The notes under the pieces are model-generated. The model was not told where the DNA came from. It saw only the letters and a list, made by a program, of their open reading frames with translations, and searched no databases. Of a stretch of 64,000 nt of DNA, positions 7,398-30,970 are shown piece after piece (positions within the stretch are counted from its first letter, which is position 1; every line of letters starts with the position of its first letter). The position numbers and the translations under genes were made by a program. The stretch lies in IMG/VR virus record IMGVR_UViG_3300017971_000203, one strand, 5' to 3'. Source of the DNA: a virus.

Positions 7398-7485
7398 GGG
7401 GGTTGTTCCCGCCGGCGGGCTGTAAACCCGTTGTCTTGTGAAACAGGTGGGTGGGCGACGAGAGGTTCAATTCCTTCAACCCTCA
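7398..7485 (+). tRNA. Atypical tRNA-Tyr(GTA)-like RNA, 8/4 fold, no canonical D-arm
   Basis: Acceptor GGGGGTTG/CAACCCTC; anticodon arm GGCGGG-CTGTAAA-CCCGTT; T-arm GAGG-TTCAATT-CCTT. Confidence 0.7.
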
Positions 7486-7557
7486 AACGCAGGCCTTGCG
7501 CGTGGGTTCGAATGCAAGCATAGTAGACAGTTCGAACCTTCGCGCAGGAGCACTGCA

Positions 7558-8067
7558 ATGACCACACGCCGAACCAGCACCGAAGAACGCATCAAGGACG
7601 CACACCGAAGGGGCTACCGAATTCGAAAAGACGGAAAAGTCATAGGGCTCAACGGTCGCATACTGAAAGTGCGTACAACCGGAGGGACCCCCTACCCGAA
7701 GTTCAACGTCGCCAAGCCCAGTCAGGGATCCATACCCGTCCATCGCTTCGCCGGGTTTCAATGGTTCGGAGAGATCGTGTTCCGGCCCGACATCCAAGTG
7801 CGCCATCTGGACGGAAACCCGTTCAATAACTCCAGAGACAACCTAGCCTTCGGAACCGCCAGCGAGAACATGCTCGACAGACCCGAAAAGGACCGAGCAG
7901 CTATCGCAAAGTACGCTGCATCACATCGCAGACGTTTGACAGAAGCACAAGTAGCCGAGCTCCGATCAATGCGGGACAACGGCGCCACCCTAGCAGAACT
8001 GGTAAAGGCCTTCGGAATAGCCAAATCAACCGTCTCCTACATCGTAAACCGAAGGACGTACAAGTAG
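7558..8067 (+). mobile_element. Free-standing HNH homing endonuclease with C-terminal HTH
   Basis: VHR...VRHLDGNPFNNSRDNL..GT.SEN motif; C-terminal helix-turn-helix; RBS AGGAG; inserted in the tRNA cluster. Confidence 0.88.
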
Positions 8068-9054: not shown

Positions 9055-9804
9055 ATGCTACAGCACCTGATCGACAAAGGCCGGAAGCTACTCGAAGCCC
9101 GCCCGATACCGCTTCCGAAGAAAGCCATCAACAAAACCATGAAGCGGCTCGTCGACCACCTGGAAGCGGCCTTCACAGAGCACGAGAAGGACTCCCCAGG
9201 AGAGCCACTCGGGAGCGGCATCTGGGCAGTAGCAGATCTCGACGTCACCGATGTGCTCGGAACAAAAAAAGCAATCCAGGTGATGATCCACTCCACGAAC
9301 TCTTCAGGCAACTCCCTAGGCGTCAACGCCCACTACAACGTCCGCACGAACGACATCGACATCTACATCCGTGGGCAGATCCCCGGGCAACTGGCTCTCC
9401 AGCTCCTCCGAGGAAAAGGCCGACGCAGTATCGAAGGCTCCATCCGGGACCTGCTCGAGCACGAACTCACCCACGCCCTCGACAACCTGCGCTGGGACCC
9501 TTCCACGTACAAGGGCTTCTTCTCCGACGACTACGAAGCCTCCGACGAAGGCAACGCCGCCCAGCTCCGCGACTTCAAGCGCTACGTCAACCAGCGCATC
9601 GAAGTGAACGCCCACATGCAACAGGTGGTGTCCCAGGTCCTCGTGGCCGCCGAGAAGTTCGCCCGGATTCTGACGAAGAAGTCCCCCCAGCAGCGGGTCC
9701 GCTTCCTACTGAAGCAGTCCGACACCTGGAAGGCCATCGGGAAGTATCTCAACTCCCGCAACAAACGGCGCATCCTGAAAGCGGTCTACGCAGCGCTGTC
9801 CTAG
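9055..9804 (+). CDS. Zincin-like metallopeptidase, putative internal head protein
   Basis: HELTH plus downstream EVNA; N-terminal LIDKGRKLLEA tag. Confidence 0.7.
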   Translation: MLQHLIDKGRKLLEARPIPLPKKAINKTMKRLVDHLEAAFTEHEKDSPGEPLGSGIWAVADLDVTDVLGTKKAIQVMIHSTNSSGNSLGVNAHYNVRTNDIDIYIRGQIPGQLALQLLRGKGRRSIEGSIRDLLEHELTHALDNLRWDPSTYKGFFSDDYEASDEGNAAQLRDFKRYVNQRIEVNAHMQQVVSQVLVAAEKFARILTKKSPQQRVRFLLKQSDTWKAIGKYLNSRNKRRILKAVYAALS

Positions 9805-10742
9805 ATCACGCCCATGTCCTGGAGCACAGTCACGACGCCCTTCTTGATGGTCTTCCGGCTCTTGGTCGTGAGCTGCCCCTGGATCTCGTTCCAGGTGTGC
9901 GACTGTCGCAGGAGAAACGTCACGGCCCGGCTCGGTGTCCAGGCCACGAGCTTCGACCGGTGCGCCGGTACCAGGTCCCGCACCTGGCTCGCGATCTCCT
10001 GCATGAAGGCCTTCACCTCTTCGGGCTGGTTCAGATAGCGCTTCCGAGCTGCCTTGGCGTCCTGCTTCCGCTGCTCCTTCGACGGAGGCGGCAACACACC
10101 GGCCTGCGACAACCGATCCTTGAAGCGCTGTACCGAGTGCCCGACGCCGAGCTCTTTCCGCTTCCGGGCAACCAGTCGGTGAGACACCTCGAAGCCGGTC
10201 ATCTTCAGGAGCTTCGACACCGCGCGATCCGAGAACGGGTGCAACGGATCCTCCCGCTGTAGGATCGCCGCAATGGTCTGCTGAAGCCGCTTTTTCCGAA
10301 GAACGTCCTTCGCGTGGGTGATCTCGTGCATCAGAGCGTACTTCATCGCGCCCTGAACGCTCGACATCTGAGTACCCTTCAGGAGCGGCACGATCTCACC
10401 CGCGCCAAGGTTGCCGTTCATTTGCACCTGTATGATCCGGTCCCGGGGCATGTAGACCGCACCAAGGAAAAGGCCCCTCACACCCCTCTGCTGGACGCTC
10501 ACGATCGACACGGGTATTTCCCGCTTCTTCCCCCTCACGTCCGAAACAGAGATGGTCTCGGTCCCCCAGACCTTATTCCCTAGGGGTGCAAGGGGAGACG
10601 TCCGTGCGAGGGAACGCAAAGAGGGCTCGAACTGCTTCATAAGCCGCTTCACCAGAGCCTCGACCACTTGGGGAGGCAACGCGATCGGACGCGCTTCGTC
10701 CAGGAGCTCCCGTCCCCGCTCAATGGTCTCCGAGATGCTCAT
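9801..10742 (-). CDS. Zincin-like metallopeptidase with inserted sigma54 RpoN-box DNA-binding domain
   Basis: HEITH...EVKA; insert EDPLHPFSDRAVSKLL...VSHRLVARKRKELGVGHSVQR; N-terminal IERGRELLDEA tag. Confidence 0.72.
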   Translation of the reverse strand: MSISETIERGRELLDEARPIALPPQVVEALVKRLMKQFEPSLRSLARTSPLAPLGNKVWGTETISVSDVRGKKREIPVSIVSVQQRGVRGLFLGAVYMPRDRIIQVQMNGNLGAGEIVPLLKGTQMSSVQGAMKYALMHEITHAKDVLRKKRLQQTIAAILQREDPLHPFSDRAVSKLLKMTGFEVSHRLVARKRKELGVGHSVQRFKDRLSQAGVLPPPSKEQRKQDAKAARKRYLNQPEEVKAFMQEIASQVRDLVPAHRSKLVAWTPSRAVTFLLRQSHTWNEIQGQLTTKSRKTIKKGVVTVLQDMGVI

Positions 10743-11095
10743 GACTTCTCCAGATCCGCCAGCGCCTTGTGAGCCTTGTCGGTCAACTCGTACTGCTCGT
10801 CCCAGGTTGGTGAACTCTTCCACCGACCTGTTGCATCAGCCCCCGCCGACGTCGACAGCCCCTGCCGGCGCTTCCCGACAGCCTTCACGAAACCCCTCTT
10901 CTCGAGCTTGCGGACCATGTTCAGCTCGCGCCTCGTGGTCGCAGCATCCACCCGGAACTTCCCCCCGATGGTGAACTGCAACCTGGCAACCATGGCCTTG
11001 GTCAGCTTCAGCTTCTTCGCCCGACTGAGAGCCTTCGGCTTCGCCTCACCCAAGAGCCCCCGACCCTTTTCGATTACTTCAGACAACTGGCTCAT
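10739..11095 (-). CDS. Basic, possibly winged-helix, putative internal head protein
   Basis: N-terminus MSQLSEVIEKGRGLLGEAK; RKLEKRGFV...YELTDKA wHTH-like pattern. Confidence 0.6.
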   Translation of the reverse strand: MSQLSEVIEKGRGLLGEAKPKALSRAKKLKLTKAMVARLQFTIGGKFRVDAATTRRELNMVRKLEKRGFVKAVGKRRQGLSTSAGADATGRWKSSPTWDEQYELTDKAHKALADLEKS

Positions 11096-11244
11096 GACAC
11101 CCTCCAAAAAACGACGTCCCCGAGCATACCAGCCCGGGGTCTCACAAGGGAAGACCCGACAACCAGTCCAGCCAGGACACCCCCTCAACAAGCTGCGCAA
11201 GACCCATCAGCAGCAGCAGGAGAAAAATCCCCCACGAGATCCCG

Positions 11245-11721
11245 CTACTCCGGATCCCCTTCAGCTTCGTTATGTGTCCGTCCTTGCTCCTGGGCATCTC
11301 GTATCCTCCCTCGTTCGAGCAGGTAGTCCCAGTCCACCGTTCCGTCCGCCTTGAGCGGTGTGCTGCAATCGAACAGATAGTACGCCTTCACGGGGTTCCC
11401 CGGTCCGGGCGCCGCCTTGAACCGAACGCCTGACAGCCTTCCAGATCTGTAATTGAAGGCGCCGCTCAGGAGGTCTGACTCGAGGTCTACCTCTCCCACC
11501 GTCGAAAAACGCCCCTCCTGGACCACGCTACCGTCCGCAGAGCTCCGCTCCTGCACCAGGAGGCCTGGATACCCCTCGAAGGCCGACATCACCGGAACCC
11601 AGGCCACGGTCTCTTCCAGGGTGGCACCCTCGGGCCCGAACTTCTTCCCGTCCCCGACCCCGAGGATCTCTCCATCGATGTACTGGTCCGCGTAGGACCG
11701 GATGTGGAACGACGACATCAC
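11245..11721 (-). CDS. Free-standing paralog of the MCP insertion domain
   Basis: YIDGEILGVGDG, SADGSVVQEGRF and NYRSGRLSGVRFKAAP...YYLFD align in order with the MCP. Confidence 0.75.
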   Translation of the reverse strand: MMSSFHIRSYADQYIDGEILGVGDGKKFGPEGATLEETVAWVPVMSAFEGYPGLLVQERSSADGSVVQEGRFSTVGEVDLESDLLSGAFNYRSGRLSGVRFKAAPGPGNPVKAYYLFDCSTPLKADGTVDWDYLLERGRIRDAQEQGRTHNEAEGDPE

Positions 11722-11734
11722 AAAGACCCTCCTA

Positions 11735-12103
11735 TCAGTACCTCCGGGGCCATTCCTTCAGCTTCTGATCGGCGAAACGCTCGAAGAGCCGTTCCGCCTC
11801 ACCGATCTGCTTCCTGGCAGCCAGCTTGTCCTTTGGGCTCCCATGATGCGCCTGCCGAAGCACCTCGATCAGCTTCATGGCTTCCTCGAGCTGTCTCTCC
11901 ACGTCATCCACCGCCCTTCCCAACAGGTCGACCATGCCCGGGTGCTCGCGCACGCGAAGAGCTCTCCCTGTGGTATCGTCGTAGTAGCCCAGCGCGACCA
12001 GCGTCCGGCAAAGGTGCTGCAGAGTCTCCGACTTGTCCAGATCCGCCTCCTTGAGCGCATACACAATGTCGCCCTTTCCTCGGATGTAGACAGGCATCCT
12101 CAC
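11735..12103 (-). CDS. Hypothetical protein
   Basis: Tiles the operon; a 73-nt internal fragment is duplicated at 13159-13231. Confidence 0.6.
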   Translation of the reverse strand: MRMPVYIRGKGDIVYALKEADLDKSETLQHLCRTLVALGYYDDTTGRALRVREHPGMVDLLGRAVDDVERQLEEAMKLIEVLRQAHHGSPKDKLAARKQIGEAERLFERFADQKLKEWPRRY

Positions 12104-12360
12104 CCCTTCTCAGCCAGAACCGTCCGGTCCTCCTGCACAGTGATCTTCACAGACCGCCCGCACATATAGCAGTCCCCGGAGCTCGTCCCCGGCCTGATCT
12201 TCCCGAACCACTCCATGCACGCGACGTTATTCACATGGAAGCAGTGCGGGCATGAAACGGGGAGCACTACGACCTTCGGACCGATCTTGTCCCACTCACT
12301 CGACACTGGCCTTCGGCTCCCTGCAGCCCTCCTTGCTGGACATCCACACGTCCCCGACAC
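12100..12360 (-). CDS. Small zinc-ribbon protein
   Basis: CPHC...CYMC; start uncertain (possibly near 12299). Confidence 0.5.
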   Translation of the reverse strand: MSGTCGCPARRAAGSRRPVSSEWDKIGPKVVVLPVSCPHCFHVNNVACMEWFGKIRPGTSSGDCYMCGRSVKITVQEDRTVLAEKG

Positions 12361-12580
12361 ACTCGAACGCCGTCGTCTCCCCGTCCTTCAGCTTGAAGGT
12401 GCAGGACACGTAGCCATCCCTGTCCGAGTCCTGGTTGACACAGACGATCCTCTCGACCTCCAGGCCCAGCTGCTGGGCGAAGGTGTGCGCCTGCTTCTCC
12501 GCCTGCGCTTTGTGGTCCCTGCACCCCGCAAAGGCCAGAGAAAAGCACACGAGAACGGCCAACAACACTGCATACTTCAT
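12296..12580 (-). CDS. Predicted lipoprotein
   Basis: Hydrophobic signal peptide ending in lipobox-like FAGC; four further Cys. Confidence 0.65.
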   Translation of the reverse strand: MKYAVLLAVLVCFSLAFAGCRDHKAQAEKQAHTFAQQLGLEVERIVCVNQDSDRDGYVSCTFKLKDGETTAFECVGDVWMSSKEGCREPKASVE

Positions 12581-12900
12581 CCGTCGTCTCCTCGGATAGA
12601 ACCGCGCGACCGTGGACGCACGCCTTGGAAGCGGACAATCGCTTCACCGTTGTCCGCACGAATAAACACCACACCGTCCAGCGGGAGAAACCTACCGTTC
12701 TCGAAGCCCATCATGAGATGTGCGATGGGAATAAGTACGCGCTCATTACTCTCGAGAAACTCCATACCGACTCCCTTGGAGTACCCGAGGAAAGCCTTCT
12801 TACAGGCCCCCTCGCCAAGAGCCGCTTGGTCCCTGGGATCAACCGCGAACACGAAGCCATCCCCCTTGCAAGACACCCTGACCCGGATCCCCTTCTCCAT
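12577..12900 (-). CDS. Hypothetical protein
   Basis: RBS GAGGAG; downstream of the promoter at 12954-12982. Confidence 0.6.
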   Translation of the reverse strand: MEKGIRVRVSCKGDGFVFAVDPRDQAALGEGACKKAFLGYSKGVGMEFLESNERVLIPIAHLMMGFENGRFLPLDGVVFIRADNGEAIVRFQGVRPRSRGSIRGDDG

Positions 12901-12953
12901 CCGTTCGTCTCCTCGGATAGAACTACACGCCCGAAGGCGCCTGTACTACGAGT

Positions 12954-12982
12954 AGGCTAATAGGTCGCCGCAGGATTGTCAA
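12954..12982 (-). promoter_or_regulatory. Sigma70-type promoter
   Basis: TTGACA-17 nt-TAGCCT. Confidence 0.6.
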
Positions 12983-13065
12983 GCGGAAAAGCGGCCCTTC
13001 AACGAACAAGCCCCCGTCTCCTCTTCCTCACCACGCTAGGCGGAATATCGCAAGGACCAAAAACG

Positions 13066-13094
13066 GAAAAAGGCGCCCCGGAGAGGGGCGCCTT
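13066..13094 (-). terminator. Intrinsic terminator
   Basis: AAGGCGCCCC/GGGGCGCCTT stem followed by T-tract on the minus strand. Confidence 0.7.
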
Positions 13095-13187
13095 ACGGCT
13101 CATATCGGCCGGAACGAAAACCGGGCCTCGCCCGGTAGTCCGCGCGCTTACAGGTTCTGCACGCGAAGAGCTCTCCCTGTGGTATCG

Positions 13188-13289
13188 TCATAGTAGCCCA
13201 GCGCGACCAGCGTCCGGCAAAGGTGCTGCAGCCTTTGCCTCGCCCAAGAACTCCCGGCCCTTCTGGATGGTCTCTGACAACGAACTCAT
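13188..13289 (-). pseudogene. Truncated tagged-protein gene (chimeric remnant)
   Basis: MSSLSETIQKGREFLGEAK fused out of frame to a copy of 11950-12022. Confidence 0.7.
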
Positions 13290-13378
13290 AGCTTCCTCCT
13301 CCAAACAACGACGACACCGAGCATAGCAACCAGATCACAGAAAAGGGATGTCCCTACAGGACATCCCCTACGAGCAGA

Positions 13379-13648
13379 TCATTTCTCGATGACCTTGTAG
13401 GACCCGTCCCGCTGCTTGCAGGCGCAGGCGACCATCCCGAAGAAGTGCTCGTGAGAACCGTCCCACCAGGAACAGTTCACCCAATAGAGCCGGTCAGCCC
13501 CATCGTACTCGATGGAATCCACGTGGAGCCCCTGCTTCTGGAAATGGCACCCGATGGCCTTCGCCGCCTCGTGCTTCGTGTAGTGGCAGCGCAGCGCGAA
13601 ACTGACTTCGGGAGTCTCGATCGTGGTCTTGGTGGTGTCGGTAGTCAT
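13379..13648 (-). CDS. Hypothetical protein
   Basis: Own promoter (TTGACA-16-TATGCT, 13693-13720), RBS GGAGG and terminator (GGGATGTCC/GGACATCCC, about 13341-13368). Confidence 0.65.
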   Translation of the reverse strand: MTTDTTKTTIETPEVSFALRCHYTKHEAAKAIGCHFQKQGLHVDSIEYDGADRLYWVNCSWWDGSHEHFFGMVACACKQRDGSYKVIEK

Positions 13649-13752
13649 CGTGTTCCCCTCCGTTGGAACGTTGTGTCCGTCAACTGAAGCTAAGCATACA
13701 CCCTCTGACGCCTATGTCAACAGGGAAAAGCAAAAAAGATCAGAAAGGGGAT

Positions 13753-14085
13753 CTACAGAGCTTTCAACTTCGCGAGCACAGCCTTCTCGATCTTCATCTG
13801 AAGGCTCATGGGAACGCCAAGACGAGAACCCGCCCCCGGAGAAGTCTCTCGGTGAAGCTTGGTATCGGGAAGAACCTGTCGCACCAGCCCCAGATCAATT
13901 TTGTCCAACTCGAGGTGTATCGGAAGGGTCTCCCCCCACACGCGAGTCTTCCTGTAGATCGTCTCAATCCCGACCTTGACCGTGGGACCGTGTTTCGACC
14001 GGATGACAGTCAACTTGATCCCTCCAGCTTTCGCTTCGTCGAAAAGCTCTCGACCCCGGTCCACTGCTTCCGACAATCTGCTCAT
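13753..14085 (-). CDS. Putative internal head protein
   Basis: N-terminus MSRLSEAVDRGRELFDEAK; RBS AAGGAGG. Confidence 0.65.
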   Translation of the reverse strand: MSRLSEAVDRGRELFDEAKAGGIKLTVIRSKHGPTVKVGIETIYRKTRVWGETLPIHLELDKIDLGLVRQVLPDTKLHRETSPGAGSRLGVPMSLQMKIEKAVLAKLKAL

Positions 14086-14203
14086 GCCTCGACCCTCCTT
14101 CTACGCCCCATCTTGCCGAGAGGCCCCCCTACCCGTCAAGACGAAGAAAGGCCGCCCCCAGAAGGAAGCGGCCTAGTGTCGAGCCCGAAGAGAAGATCAG
14201 CGC

Positions 14204-14227
14204 TTACAGGTTCTGCACTCGCAGCTG
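14204..14227 (-). repeat. Duplicated 3' end of the MCP gene
   Basis: Identical to 15495-15518; a 15-nt copy is also at 13148-13162. Confidence 0.85.
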
Positions 14228-14232
14228 TCCGG

Positions 14233-14520
14233 TCACATATCCTTGCCCGGTTGCGGTCGCAACACGCCTTGCTTTCTCGCTTGCGCCTCAATCTGCTCCC
14301 ATGCCACCGAATGAGGTAGACCAGAGGCCTTCACCACCTTGGTAACCGCCTTCGTGGCCCTTTGATAGAAACGTTCCTCTTGACGAGGCGAAGCATAACC
14401 GACAGACCCTAGATACAAACGCATCGCCTTGACTGCCGCATTCAGTACCCCCTTCGGAGGCATCTTCACCTCACTCAACAGCTCCCGCCCTCGTTCCACC
14501 GCTTCTGATAGCTTACTCAT
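14233..14520 (-). CDS. Putative internal head protein
   Basis: N-terminus MSKLSEAVERGRELLSEVK; RBS AGGAGG. Confidence 0.65.
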   Translation of the reverse strand: MSKLSEAVERGRELLSEVKMPPKGVLNAAVKAMRLYLGSVGYASPRQEERFYQRATKAVTKVVKASGLPHSVAWEQIEAQARKQGVLRPQPGKDM

Positions 14521-14569
14521 GCTCCGCCCTCCTGTTGCGCTTCATACTGCCGGGCACATCCCAGAAGCG

Positions 14570-15412
14570 TCAAGCACAGGCTCTGCGCTTCCGCGTGTAA
14601 CACGCCGAGCACAAGCCCTTCGCCAGCACCGGCTTCTCGTTACATTCTTCACAGAGCGTCCCCTTGCCCGTCTTCCGCCGCCCCTTCCACCAGCAGGCCT
14701 GACACTGGTCCTCGCGCGTGACCGGCCGCCCGCACGCGCACAAGGCCATCTGAACGTCCAAGTAGTGCTCTCTGGCTTCCCGGTAGACCTGATACTTCGT
14801 CTCGTTCCTGATATGCTCGGGCGCCTCGAGGTACAGATAGTCGAGCACGAGGATCGCCTTCGAACCCGTCCACTTCACGGAATACCAAAAAGAGCGGCCC
14901 TTACACTGCTCCACGATCGCCGCCCTAGACACCCCTGTCCAGCGCATCAACCGCACACGCATGGTCTGGAGAAACGTGCGACACGCGCTCGAATACATAG
15001 CCAGAGGGTAGTCGTTGCCCTGCCCCTTCCCCCTCTTCGACAGAGACACGTGGCCATCGGCATCCCAGAGACCACGGAAGAAATGCGGCTCCAGCTCCCG
15101 CGGCAACTCCAGGGGCCACCGGAGGTCATGCGTCTTCGGCCCGCAGATCCCAAAGCGCTCTTCCACAAGCTCTACGAGCTGCTTCGAGTCCGCATAGGCC
15201 TGAACAGCCCTGACGCCCTTCCTGATGCGCTTCGGCGTCTTCTCCGGGGCAAACAACGCCAGCCAACGCTCGGCTGTGGCGCGGTTCCCAACCATGCTGA
15301 CACGGTAGGTTCCGCGCTTCGCGTAGACGTTCCCGTCCCCGTAGAGCACCCCGAGCCACCACGCCAGCTCAGGCGACCACCCTTCGAAAAAGCCCCAGTT
15401 GATCACCGCCAT
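14570..15412 (-). mobile_element. Free-standing double-motif LAGLIDADG homing endonuclease with C-terminal zinc fingers
   Basis: WLGVLYGDG and FFRGLWDADG motifs; CAC..CQAC and CEEC..CSAC. Confidence 0.85.
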
Positions 15413-15494
15413 AACGAAAAATCCCCACGCCGCAGTTACGGGACGTGGGGACTACTTTAGCTTCTTCGCGCGGGGGCGTCAACCCCCGTCGTTA

Positions 15495-16997
15495 TTACAG
15501 GTTCTGCACTCGCAGCTGCCCATAATATTCCGATCGGAGCAATTTCTTCGCGTATCGCGTGCGAAGACCCTTGCGGAAGCTCATGTCGTTCGGATCGAGG
15601 AAGGTCGGAGTTACCTGCAGCGGAATGTAGGGAGCCCACACGAACCCACTGTCGAGGTAGCTGGCGCCCTTCAGCCCGATCAGGGCCATGTCGCTCTGGA
15701 AGAAGGGGTCGATGTAGACGACCCACTTGTTCATAAGCGTGCCGTTCTTGTACACGCCGAACTGACCGTGCTGCGTCATGGGACGCGGCATGTCGAGCGG
15801 CGCACCGAACTGCGGACCCGAACTCCAAATGGGCCGGAAGTCGCCGTGGGTGGTCAGCTGCTCGATGAGCGCGCTGATCTCGGGCGAGGTGACGATCCAG
15901 TTGGCCGGCGCACGCAGCGTGGCTTTGTGGATGCCGTTGGACACCCGGCTGAAGCTCGTGATGATGCTCCGCAGGTGGTCGACCTCGCTGATCCCGGCGG
16001 GCGGGATGCGATCGAAGACGTCGGTCGTCCCGGTGCTGGCCAGAAAGAGATCCGTGATGATCTCACGATCGATCTCGAGCGCCATCTCCTGGGCGGCGGC
16101 GGAAACGAGCTCGGCCTCGGCCTCGATACCCTGGAGCGCCCGGAGGTCCTCAGCGGCCTCGCTGGACCACAGAGCCTTCAGGCGACGGCTCTCGGCCTCG
16201 ATGACGGCCTTCTTGACGTCGAGCTTCATCCTCGGGAGGAGGGTGTTCAGCTCACCGTCGTAGCGGTAGTACATCTTGATCTGGTTGCCGTTGAGCGGCG
16301 CAGCATCGAAGAAGACTCCCGCAATCGCACCGTTCGAGTAGTTGAGCGTACCCGCAGTGAGATTGCTGGTGGCACCGGTGTCGGCGGTCCCGTCCGCAAG
16401 GAAGAAGCCTTCCTGCACGGTGCTTCCGTCCGCAGCACTGATCTCACGGATGATCACCTGGATGCCGCGATCGGTGCTGGGCTTGTGGACCGGGGTGAAC
16501 GACAGGCTGACCGACAGAGGCGTCTGACCAGACACGTAGTTGATGCCGTCACCAACTGCCAGAACCTCGCCGTCCACATACTCGGACGTGTAGTTCTGGT
16601 TGAAATCGCGCGGGAAGATCTCCCCTGCCGTGACCGCACCCTTGGTGGTCGCGTACACGTAGTCCAGATAGAAGACTGCGCCTTGCGGTGCGGTCATCGG
16701 CTGAACAGAGACGATCTCGTTCGCGATGAGATTGGGGAACACCCGGGTGAGCACCGGGAAGATGAACTTGGTGAAGTAGCCCACGTTGATGGCGCGGGTC
16801 TCTTCCGACATGGCACGGAGGTGACGGGCCTGATTCTCGAACAGCATCGCCAGGCAGCCCTTGCGATACATATCGAAGGGCGTGCGGCCGGGCATGCCCT
16901 CCATCAGGTCGTCCCACTTCTCCACCAGGACACTGACCAGTCGCTGGTCGGCGATCGTCCCCGTGCTGTCTTCGATGATCATTCGACGAGCTTCCAC
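15495..16997 (-). CDS. Major capsid protein (T4 gp23-like)
   Basis: EKW, LFENQ, VQPMTAP, RLKALWSSE, LEIDREI, WAPYIPL and GLRTRYA motifs; GTG start after AAGGAGG. Confidence 0.95.
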   Translation of the reverse strand: MEARRMIIEDSTGTIADQRLVSVLVEKWDDLMEGMPGRTPFDMYRKGCLAMLFENQARHLRAMSEETRAINVGYFTKFIFPVLTRVFPNLIANEIVSVQPMTAPQGAVFYLDYVYATTKGAVTAGEIFPRDFNQNYTSEYVDGEVLAVGDGINYVSGQTPLSVSLSFTPVHKPSTDRGIQVIIREISAADGSTVQEGFFLADGTADTGATSNLTAGTLNYSNGAIAGVFFDAAPLNGNQIKMYYRYDGELNTLLPRMKLDVKKAVIEAESRRLKALWSSEAAEDLRALQGIEAEAELVSAAAQEMALEIDREIITDLFLASTGTTDVFDRIPPAGISEVDHLRSIITSFSRVSNGIHKATLRAPANWIVTSPEISALIEQLTTHGDFRPIWSSGPQFGAPLDMPRPMTQHGQFGVYKNGTLMNKWVVYIDPFFQSDMALIGLKGASYLDSGFVWAPYIPLQVTPTFLDPNDMSFRKGLRTRYAKKLLRSEYYGQLRVQNL

Positions 16998-17029
16998 CTC
17001 GCCCTCCTTTGGTGAGAACAACAAACTGG

Positions 17030-18679
17030 TCAGGCCCCCGGGGGCAGCAGCGGCCTGAGATCCTCAAGTGAACATGATAATCCGTTGTAGCCCCCGGAAT
17101 CCTCGGAGACGAGTTGACGCCCGCCCCTCGGCTTCGGCCACGGCTCCTCTTCGTCGCGCGGCGTGCCTCTAAGACCACCGCCGAACTCTTCGCTCAGCCG
17201 TGCAGCAAGCTGCCGCACAGACTCTCTTCCTCTCTTCTTCGGCCGACTCTCCTCGATGAGAGCATCGACCTCTTCCTTGGAGTCGATCGACTGGACCGAC
17301 TCCAGGATGGACCGGATCTTGTGCGCGTGCGGATTCGTATGCAGACGCTGCTCGGCGTACAGGCGAAGACCTGTGACCTTCAGGGCCTCCAGAGCCTTCT
17401 CCAGAGCCAACTCGAGCTTCCCACTGCGCTCAATGAGCTCGGCCCTCTCTTCCTGCGCCTTCTCGTGCCGCGCTTCCTGCAGAGACGCGAGGTCCCCCAG
17501 CTCAGCCAGCGCTGCGTCCACACGCTCCTGGAACTCTTCCACGGAAGCGTACTCCGTGACATCCCCGACTAGCCGCCTCACGCGATTGGCCTGTGGGTGC
17601 CCAGAGACAGCCCGCTCGAGGTAGCAGAGATAGCCGGCCACCTGGGCGGCCTCCATCATCTCTTCCACCTCCTCCTGGAGCTCCTCGATCCGGGCATCCC
17701 GCTCTTCCAGCTGCGCCCGGAGGTCCGCCAGCTCTGCGTCCTTTGCAGCCAGGACATCCACGGACTCCTCGGACAGCATGAACGGACTCAAGATTTGGGA
17801 GATCTGCTCGAGCGCCAGGGCCTTCTGCGTCTCCGCCGGGTCCGCCGAAAACTCCTCCCGGACCTGCTCCTCGACCTGCGCCCGAATTTCGCCCATGCGG
17901 GACAAGAGCATCTCGGAGAGCTTCGCCTCCATCTCGTCCCGGACCTGGACCTTCGCGATCTCGAGGGTGTCGTCATCGACGCCCTCGACGTGCACATCCG
18001 GCACCTCTTCGGTCAGCGGCGTCACCTTGAGCTCCACGCCCTCGAAGAGGAACCTGCCGGAACCGGTATCGACATCTTCGCTCACGAGCTCGGGGTAGGC
18101 ATCCTGGTCCGCAGGATCCGCAACGAAATCGAACGCGACAAGCCGGTAGTCCTCCTGGACCACGTCCTGCCCGCGCTGGTTGGGCTTGGTTGTCCCGTAG
18201 CCCCTGGAGCTGACGCCCACGCGGCAACCGCTCCTGAGAAGAGCCGCGAGGTCCTTGCCCCGGCTGGTGGGAAGAATCTCGGCTTCACCGTAGATCTTCC
18301 CGTCCTGGCCAACGGTCAAGTTGGTGATGATATGAGATACGCGGGAGAGCGCGGTCTTTCCATCGGAGGGGTGATCGAGCTCTCCGAACACCTTCCGCTG
18401 ACCGAAGCTGCTCTCGAGACGCTTGATCTCACGCTCCCAGAGGGGCAGCGGGTAAAGGCGCTTGTTCTCTGTCGCCTCGTCATACCGCCCGAACTCTCCA
18501 CGAACACGAACACGACCAGTACGCTTGTCCTCCAGAATCTCCAGAGGGGCCAGCTCGTCCAGAAACTCGCGAAGTACGGGAAGGTCGCCGTTGATGGCAA
18601 CGGAGTCCTCTGTCAGCACCTTGTCCGCCATTTGTCCTGCCTCCGAAACCGGCAAGCTGGTTTGTTGGACGCCCGCCAT
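17030..18679 (-). CDS. Prohead protease (gp21-like) fused to coiled-coil scaffold
   Basis: NKRLYP, GELDHP, GVSSRG and FDFVADP motifs; acidic coiled-coil C-terminal half. Confidence 0.92.
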   Translation of the reverse strand: MAGVQQTSLPVSEAGQMADKVLTEDSVAINGDLPVLREFLDELAPLEILEDKRTGRVRVRGEFGRYDEATENKRLYPLPLWEREIKRLESSFGQRKVFGELDHPSDGKTALSRVSHIITNLTVGQDGKIYGEAEILPTSRGKDLAALLRSGCRVGVSSRGYGTTKPNQRGQDVVQEDYRLVAFDFVADPADQDAYPELVSEDVDTGSGRFLFEGVELKVTPLTEEVPDVHVEGVDDDTLEIAKVQVRDEMEAKLSEMLLSRMGEIRAQVEEQVREEFSADPAETQKALALEQISQILSPFMLSEESVDVLAAKDAELADLRAQLEERDARIEELQEEVEEMMEAAQVAGYLCYLERAVSGHPQANRVRRLVGDVTEYASVEEFQERVDAALAELGDLASLQEARHEKAQEERAELIERSGKLELALEKALEALKVTGLRLYAEQRLHTNPHAHKIRSILESVQSIDSKEEVDALIEESRPKKRGRESVRQLAARLSEEFGGGLRGTPRDEEEPWPKPRGGRQLVSEDSGGYNGLSCSLEDLRPLLPPGA

Positions 18680-30116: not shown

Positions 30117-30970
30117 TTCCGTCTCCTTAGTCGGACCTTCTCGGGGTTGATGCAGCCGAAAAAGTTCCGAGCCACATCAGGACAAGGCGGCGGCTCCACG
30201 GGGTCTTCCCCCTTGTCCGCCTTGAAGATGAAGTCGCTCATGTCGGCAGAGTACTTGTCCAGCTCTCCCGACCCGTGCTCGAGCGCAACCTCCTGCTCGG
30301 GAGTCTGCGGCTTGTAGACATCGTGCGACCACTCTGCAAAGTCGTGCTGCCCCGGCGTCCGGATCTGGAGCTCCTTGGTCATCCCGTCTTCGTCGACCAC
30401 GGTGAAGTGGTAACTCCGATAGTCACCGCGCGGGTTGTTGACGTAGTCGTCGTCGAAGACCACCTCATAGTTCTCCTGGACCTTCTTCGCCGTCTCGAAG
30501 ACCTGCTCGAGGTCGTCCACCTCGATCCGGATGCCCGTGGCATCTGTGATCATGCCCGGACGGGGATACTTCCAGTCTTCCCACTTGCCCGGGTTGCGCA
30601 CGATCTTCCCCAGGATGCTCTCCATGGTTTTCACACGCCCCGTGATCCGGGCTCCTTCCGGCGCCATCGCGCTGAGACGCTTCTTCGCCTGGTCGAAGCC
30701 CGCTGCGTGCTTCTGCCGGAGCTCTTGCGCCTCGGCAACATGATCGGCCAAAGACATCCCGGGCTCGAGAATCCCGGAATCGACGATCTTCCCGAGCTCC
30801 TTGATGACAGAAGAATGGGCCTCCCCGCCCCCGGTCCTGCGCTCCTTCACACGAACCCACGTCCCGTCCGGTAGTTTCATGTGCGGGCCGCGCTTACGTT
30901 GTCGGACCGTCCACGGAGGGTAGGTGAGCTCTTGCAGGATCTTCCGGCCTTCCTCGATCAAGCGCTTCAT
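30113..30970 (-). CDS. RelA/SpoT-family small alarmone synthetase (SAS)
   Basis: GRVKT.ES..K, DATGIRI, DDY..NP..YRSYH and ELQIRT...HDFAEWSH..YK; N-terminal LIEEGRKILQE tag. Confidence 0.88.
   Translation of the reverse strand: MKRLIEEGRKILQELTYPPWTVRQRKRGPHMKLPDGTWVRVKERRTGGGEAHSSVIKELGKIVDSGILEPGMSLADHVAEAQELRQKHAAGFDQAKKRLSAMAPEGARITGRVKTMESILGKIVRNPGKWEDWKYPRPGMITDATGIRIEVDDLEQVFETAKKVQENYEVVFDDDYVNNPRGDYRSYHFTVVDEDGMTKELQIRTPGQHDFAEWSHDVYKPQTPEQEVALEHGSGELDKYSADMSDFIFKADKGEDPVEPPPCPDVARNFFGCINPEKVRLRRRK

Follow-up and report, generated by a model that had tools for sequence, protein, structure and literature searches.

Why does a phage protein with an HExxH metalloenzyme motif carry, directly behind that motif, a segment that resembles part of a bacterial transcription factor? 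Two convergent genes raise this question in a 64,000-nucleotide stretch of viral DNA (IMG/VR record IMGVR_UViG_3300017971_000203), hereafter the window. The product of one gene, P0001, has about 60 additional residues directly C-terminal to HExxH, and we identified them as the C-terminal RpoN domain of sigma-54. The product of the other gene, P0002, is a paralog without the insert. The window has about 60% G+C, and its source is an uncultured T4-like phage. The elements concerned are as follows.

9801..10742 (stop included), minus strand: P0001, insert-carrying HExxH protein, 313 amino acids from ATG
9055..9804, plus strand: P0002, insert-free paralog, 249 amino acids, with HELTH at 9460-9474, Glu183 at 9601-9603 and an acidic loop
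10314..10328, minus strand: HEITH motif, P0001 residues 139-143
10125..10310, minus strand: sigma-54 RpoN-like three-helix domain, P0001 residues 145-206
10155..10184, minus strand: RpoN-box equivalent, P0001 residues 187-196
10038..10124, minus strand: Lys/Arg-rich basic linker, P0001 residues 207-235, which leads the chain back to the helix that starts with the conserved Glu

The insert is a sigma-54 RpoN domain

Both open reading frames (ORFs) named in the original prediction are present, and their stop codons overlap as CTAG at 9801-9804. The two products align with 36% identity over residues 7-149 (E-value 1e-25) and 42% identity over residues 234-307 (3e-12); residues ~150-233 of P0001 have no partner in P0002 in the pairwise alignment. 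The motif HExxH with its following Asp reads HEITHAKD in P0001 and HELTHALD in P0002. The segment at 10125-10286 that had been singled out as the insert corresponds to P0001 residues 153-206, and P0002 has at this place, as predicted, an acidic loop (net charge -3).

The Pfam profile Sigma54_DBD (PF04552) matched residues 142-206 of P0001 with an E-value of 5.1e-9 and a score of 36.5 bits, above its curated cut-off of 22.8 bits. The match covered positions 93-158 of the 160 profile positions, which is the C-terminal RpoN module only. Three further natural proteins carry the insert. Two of them, P0003 and P0004, have the same precomputed Pfam label as P0001, and the third, P0006, scored 19.3 bits, below the cut-off. 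In NCBIfam, all matches of P0001 were to sigma-54 models, at the extreme C-terminus of the models. For example, TIGR02395 was matched at positions 375-433 of 434 with 32 bits (cut-off, 277). The NCBIfam matches of P0003 and P0004 were all to sigma-54 except for one weak row, those of P0006 were likewise, more weakly, and P0002 had no match there. Because the three further carriers each matched sigma-54 models independently, the match of the insert is far beyond chance. A sequence search of the PDB returned 13 matches, every one of them sigma-54, the best being the Aquifex aeolicus RpoN domain chains 2ahq and 2o8k (E-value ~2e-6).

Structure comparison gave the same answer. We used an AlphaFold2 model of P0001 with a mean predicted local distance difference test (pLDDT) score of 81.7. 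Foldseek aligned this model to 2o8k, an isolated RpoN domain in complex with -24 DNA, with a probability of 1.00 and a root-mean-square deviation (rmsd) of 2.2 A over 54 columns at 39% identity. The sigma-54 holoenzyme structures 5nwt, 8f1j and 9mse superposed on the model at an rmsd of 1.7-1.8 A. The Atlas structural neighbours of residues 145-202 were sigma-54 clusters throughout, with template modelling (TM) scores of 0.74-0.78. Pfam, NCBIfam, the PDB sequence search and the fold search thus agree on the identity proposed originally, a -24-binding RpoN domain whose recognition helix has diverged. That the insert is a true homolog of the C-terminal RpoN domain of sigma-54 is strongly supported.

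The other parts of sigma-54 were not found in P0001. Region I (Sigma54_AID) had no Pfam or NCBIfam match outside residues 142-211, the core-binding domain (Sigma54_CBD) was not found by Pfam or NCBIfam, and the ELH-HTH part, which reads the -12 element, was not matched, the Sigma54_DBD match starting at profile position 93. Since only the RpoN module is there, P0001 cannot be a sigma factor.

The RpoN box and its recognition helix

The P0001 sequence SHRLVARKRK aligned with ARRTVAKYRE, the RpoN box of sigma-54. Four of the ten positions are identical (R, V, A and R), and there is one further K-to-R change; the insert differs from sigma-54 at the equivalents of R455, T457, Y461 and E463. In sigma-54, R455 and R456 are base-reading residues, and single changes of R456 retarget promoter choice (PMC12096077). 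The residue pairs 455/456, 457/458 and 461/462 are essential in vivo (PMC2715252). The equivalent of R456 (R189 in P0001) was invariant in all four carriers, and the equivalent of R455 was H, F, H or P. Also invariant among the carriers, despite an overall identity of 33%, were E..P..P.SD and R..V...R..LG...S..R. From this invariance we conclude that selection maintains the fold and part of the surface that reads DNA.

Distribution and origin of the insert

We found the insert in 4 of about 150 family members that we looked at, namely P0001, P0003, P0004 and P0006. The spacing between HExxH and a downstream N-x3-E motif was 17-48 residues in about 143 members and 94-107 residues in the four carriers only. 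In the carriers this loop has a net charge of +15, +18, +11 and +5, compared with a mean of -1.7 for the family. Judging from these alignments, the insert occupies the variable loop of the family and is a rare, lineage-specific acquisition. In the P0001 model, the helix of residues 129-162 runs unbroken from HEITH into the first helix of the RpoN domain, so that a DNA-binding module at this place would be fixed near the predicted metal site.

A tree of the carriers, built with the linker and loop removed, placed them in one clade (support 98/96) together with the insert-free paralogs P0002, P0005 and P0023; the branching order inside this clade is not settled. A single insertion event is compatible with the tree, though not proven by it. 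A word-based search with the insert alone as a query returned the three close carriers and nothing further. The most distant carrier, P0006 (contig L002, 1520-2566), has 18 extra residues in its RpoN-like domain, placed after helix 1 and ahead of the P-x-SD motif, and a longer N-terminus without the typical leader described below.

The HExxH scaffold family

A family profile built from 12 homologs was searched against 1.84 billion proteins. It returned 908 cluster representatives at E-values of 1e-3 or lower, of which 108 were at 1e-30 or lower. The family has two forms: stand-alone proteins of about 240 amino acids, and a domain within proteins of up to 2068 amino acids. The companions of the scaffold domain in these giant proteins include SprT-like, ART-PolyVal, PARP, pyrophosphatase, topoisomerase I and other domains, a setting that is the pattern of polyvalent proteins. 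The Atlas neighbours of the scaffold were 100% viral. The family is phage-only and uncharacterised, with no Pfam model and no solved structure. The nearest scaffold and capsid relatives in the databases were at LR745208.1 21707-22423 and LR756511.1 523515-524936. These records are huge phages, also uncultured, with genomes of 485 kb and 595 kb, so the family reaches jumbo phages.

The two His and the Glu of HExxH were invariant in alignments of 12, 38 and 75 members, and the Asn and Glu of the downstream N-x3-E were invariant in the 38- and 75-member alignments. The latter Glu provides one further feature of P0001.

10017..10019, minus strand: Glu242 of N-x3-E, predicted third metal ligand, from its invariance and the gluzincin architecture (PMC5512222)

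Its equivalent in P0002 is E183. The model of P0002 (pLDDT 91.8; predicted TM-score (pTM) 0.86) opens with a long N-terminal helix and continues through a four-strand sheet to the HExxH helix; after a loop come a helix starting with Glu and a helical bundle. The HExxH motif lies on helix 126-142, and the invariant Glu begins helix 181-201. The metallopeptidase core of polyvalent proteins combines an N-terminal helix and a sheet of three strands with two further helices, one bearing HExxH and the other the Glu (PMC5512222).

The original prediction called the scaffold a zincin peptidase. The invariant HExxH and Glu and the topology of helix, sheet and two helices argue for this assignment, and so do matches below the Pfam cut-offs: among 75 members they were mostly to zincins, with M91 in 9, Zincin_1 in 3, and M90, M76, M48 and Tox-MPTase2 besides. 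However, no search placed the scaffold in a peptidase family. The best curated-peptidase match of P0002 was below threshold (Peptidase_M76, E-value 0.14). Foldseek searches of the PDB with the P0001 and P0002 models gave no zincin fold for the scaffold, and the scaffold search gave nothing at an E-value of 1e-3 or lower. The comparison with 48,161 representatives by VIA-align did not yield one either, its best Z-score of 6.7 being on the C-terminal helices only. Apart from the RpoN domain, the fold searches returned generic helical bundles only. The family profile found no solved relative among PDB sequences, only spurious matches to repeat proteins, and BFVD gave only unnamed phage proteins. 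From its motif and topology, the scaffold is likely to be a zincin-like metalloenzyme; the word protease is less certain for it.

Peptidase_M91 was considered as a name for the scaffold and rejected. Its match lies inside the family domain in P0014 and P0021 but is a separate zincin domain in P0018, and stand-alone members have no significant M91 match.

Leader sequence and head-gene context

The following features bear on how P0001 might be delivered.

10695..10742, minus strand: N-terminal leader of P0001, residues 1-16, L-D-E then Ala; putative capsid-targeting propeptide (E-value 1e-13 in the leader search below)
10739..11095, minus strand: small leader-tagged ORF upstream of P0001, 118 amino acids, without Pfam match
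15495-17024, minus strand: gene for a gp23-like major head protein
17030-18679: gene for a gp21-like head maturation (prohead) protease (phrog_207 match, E-value 2e-45)

A hidden Markov model (HMM) of the leader, made from the first 27 residues of three proteins, matched the ORF starts at 10742, 11095, 9055, ~13289 (a remnant), 14085 and 14520. A weak seventh match, at 30970, was in the ORF of a RelA/SpoT-type synthetase. The leader has about 15 residues, M-S-x-L-S-E-x-I-x-x-G-R-x-L-L-x-E, and heads ORFs that lie downstream of the capsid gene and otherwise have no relation to one another. It ends with L-D-E, L-L-E, L-G-E, F-D-E or L-S-E, followed by a small residue.

A related 98-kb phage contig, L001, whose capsid protein is 74% identical to that of the window, has its carrier gene immediately after the capsid gene, followed by two more leader-bearing ORFs. 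The gene context of P0003 and P0006 was read from contigs L001 and L002.

6007, ~6950 and 7219 of L001: starts of the leader-bearing ORFs

The gap between the capsid and carrier genes is 5918-6006 in L001 and 10743-15494 in the window, where additional small ORFs fill about 4.7 kb and several of them have the leader. The interval behaves as a hypervariable cassette site.

In T4, the gp21 prohead protease cuts at L/I-x-E, and internal proteins use leaders of this type for capsid targeting. The shared leader ending in L-x-E, together with the gp21-like protease, suggests packaging in the capsid, trimming and injection. By this analogy, P0001 is probably packaged in the capsid and injected.

The sequence A-R-P-I-P-L(-D) at P0001 residues 17-23 (~10674-10694) lies right behind the putative cleavage site and is near-invariant family-wide. 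It also opens the scaffold domain in the giant polyvalent proteins, where profile matches start at positions 8-13. A site of autoprocessing is one possible role for it; another is that of a strand filling the active-site cleft.

Proposed function and alternatives

The homology, position, rarity and conservation of the insert and the invariant motifs of the family were observed directly, and our model starts from them. From here on we infer: that P0001 binds metal and cleaves proteins, that it is packaged and injected, that it binds DNA, and which target it has. The proposed course is as follows. In a phage-specific zincin-like HExxH...E family, the variable loop of one small lineage would have gained a bacterial sigma-54 RpoN domain of about 60 residues. 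P0001 would be made late, along with the head genes. The shared N-terminal leader would probably bring it into the prohead, the gp21-like protease would trim it after L-D-E, and it would be injected together with the phage DNA. The RpoN module and the strongly basic linker would then hold the enzyme to duplex DNA at sites that contain GG and resemble the -24 element, and the continuity of the module with the catalytic helix would keep the metal centre near DNA-bound proteins. The enzyme may cleave or displace such proteins, for which sigma-54 holoenzyme, its activators and nucleoid proteins are candidates. We give about even odds to this composite model, the most likely of the readings, in which P0001 is a virion-delivered metalloenzyme tethered to duplex DNA by a co-opted RpoN module and a basic linker. 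A narrower version seems distinctly unlikely to us: that an injected metalloprotease with a host-derived RpoN domain homes to host sigma-54 (-24-type) promoters at infection and cleaves or evicts sigma-54 holoenzyme or activators, shutting stress and defence programmes.

Several points weigh against the composite model. The equivalents of R455, T457 and Y461 differ from sigma-54, so the specificity may not be for the -24 element or the canonical TGGCAC. The sequence TGGCAC-N5-TTGCW, allowing up to 2 mismatches, was seen 9 times in the window (20.2 +/- 4.6 expected), and TGGCAC was seen 19 times (28.9 +/- 4.8 expected), so that neither was enriched. The orientation of the domains in the P0001 model is uncertain (pTM 0.46; pLDDT of the insert, 54-79). 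The scaffold was below every Pfam cut-off, and when the top 1000 Foldseek rows were re-aligned, whole-domain rows to HExxH proteins were weak (Z-scores of 4.8 for the ChlB HExxH oxygenase domain, 4.3 for PprI, 4.0 for IrrE and 3.1 for aureolysin).

No over-represented 7- or 8-mers were found in the window. With no enriched sites or motifs, there is no site array within it. The sigma-54 consensus and TGGCAC were about 2 standard deviations below expectation, that is, mildly depleted; the phage may avoid such sites in its own genome, or the depletion could be meaningless.

The main alternative to tethering at -24-like sites is that the RpoN-like module and basic linker are a general DNA-affinity device by which an internal head protein leaves the capsid with the genome; neither promoter specificity nor host sigma-54 would play a part. 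T4 has basic internal proteins that stay with the packaged genome and exit the capsid with the DNA. The loop charge of +5 to +18, the lack of conservation of one base-reading arginine, the leader and head-gene setting, which point to a packaged protein, and the lack of a candidate site array or over-represented motif in the window would all be expected from such a device. However, the carriers keep the sigma-54 signature, the R456 equivalent and the whole fold at 33% identity, none of which a simple basic tail needs, and the insert-free P0002 has the same leader, so the insert is dispensable for targeting. We consider this explanation unlikely. A very unlikely one, in our view, is competition with sigma-54, in which the RpoN domain would occlude -24 elements and block sigma-54-dependent host transcription (for example, of stress or envelope responses), and the HExxH scaffold would have another role or none. 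It is suggested by the binding of the isolated sigma-54 RpoN domain to -24 DNA (2o8k) and by the absence of the core-binding, activator-interacting and -12 parts, which would allow DNA binding without recruitment of the polymerase. However, the catalytic motifs are fully conserved in all carriers, which argues for an enzyme in use, and the recognition helix differs at several positions.

The insert might also be a protein-protein mimic, copying the C-terminal surface of sigma-54. Its target, which it would bring to the active site, could be RNA polymerase, a partner of sigma-54 or a sensor of the host. It directly adjoins the predicted active site, and phages commonly imitate host domains. This idea seems far-fetched, because conservation falls on the RpoN box, which faces the DNA, the segment has a strongly basic character, and no partner is known to bind the RpoN domain alone. 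Finally, the likeness could be due to chance or to a generic helix-turn-helix (HTH), or the ORF could be no gene: the match is short (~60 residues) and the single-sequence PDB E-values are modest (~1e-6). To this we give next to no probability, and it is already contradicted by the results. The Pfam match is above the curated cut-off, three libraries give sigma-54 and no other HTH family, four independent natural sequences behave alike, the fold superposes on a solved domain, and orthologs of P0001 with 66-75% identity occur on other phage contigs.

Gene neighbourhood and relatives of the phage

The start ATG of P0001 overlaps the stop codon of the upstream leader-tagged gene (ATGA) and is preceded by a GGAG ribosome-binding site; P0001 is translationally coupled to this 118-amino-acid ORF. 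On the other side of the convergent pair, an ORF at 7438-8067 on the plus strand, with an HNH_3 endonuclease domain (E-value 1.4e-6) and a C-terminal HTH, abuts the upstream side of a tRNA block and is probably a homing endonuclease.

The window contains head genes (the gp23-like and gp21-like genes above and a portal protein gene) and also replication genes for a DNA polymerase and helicases. These proteins recur on contigs that reach 153 kb. The phage is very distant from T4: across the phage collection searched, no capsid protein exceeded 35% identity to its own. A search of phage DNA with the window matched tRNA genes only, and the single match in a bacterial genome was to a contig of a metagenome-assembled genome of Actinomycetota.

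Significance

Sigma-54 is an evolutionary loner, and its domains, RpoN included, are taken as diagnostic of that protein. Our literature search for Sigma54_DBD/PF04552, and for the RpoN box in connection with phages, gave no report of an RpoN domain in phage proteins, and we met no account of this domain outside sigma-54. P0001 would belong to a known kind, the injected phage metalloenzyme of the polyvalent type with a variable insert; what is new is that the insert is a co-opted sigma-54 domain. A conserved copy of RpoN in a phage enzyme means that this module can serve as a portable DNA-reading unit. As modelled, P0001 would be a natural case in which one unbroken helix links a catalytic domain to a promoter-recognition helix.

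If P0001 is both injected and sequence-specific, it would represent a new phage route to seize or disarm host transcription and a possible template for DNA-addressed proteases. Were homing to promoters true, P0001 would be without precedent in two respects, as a natural reuse of the RpoN domain outside sigma-54 and as a protease addressed to promoters. A further outcome is the definition of a large HExxH family, confined to phages, with more than 900 cluster representatives.

Comparison with known systems

The insert shares with the sigma-54 RpoN domain (PF04552; 2ahq, 2o8k, 5ui5) the three-helix fold, the motifs E..P..P.SD and LG...S..R, and about 38-39% identity to the Aquifex domain. It differs in being nested inside another domain of a phage protein, with a basic linker behind it.

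The scaffold resembles the zincin-like metallopeptidase (MPTase) domains of phage and plasmid polyvalent proteins (Iyer et al. 2017, PMC5512222) in core topology and in an Asp three residues past HExxH. That paper describes no RpoN insert, and the word 'sigma' occurs in it 0 times. Both types of domain have a variable insert site between the two C-terminal helices, and both occur alone or in giant multi-domain phage proteins beside ART, SprT-like and other effector domains. In contrast to the MPTase domains, the scaffold has no match to Pfam MPTase-PolyVal or any peptidase model at the cut-off; its N-terminal edge bears a conserved ARPIPL motif of its own, and its C-terminal part is a bundle of helices.

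The delivery proposed for P0001 resembles that of the T4 internal proteins and Alt: a short leader on unrelated proteins ends with L/I-x-E, the genes are clustered, and there are a gp21-like protease and a gp23-like capsid gene. Another tagged protein here is also an enzyme, the RelA/SpoT-type synthetase. The leader of this phage is different and longer (~15 residues).

The SprT/Wss1/Spartan DNA-dependent proteases and the repressor-cleaving metalloproteases IrrE/PprI and ImmA combine HExxH with a DNA-binding or HTH element and aim cleavage at proteins on DNA or close to it. P0001 likewise pairs HExxH with a DNA-binding-type module. It has no significant sequence or fold membership in these groups; its module is nested in the catalytic domain and comes from sigma-54.

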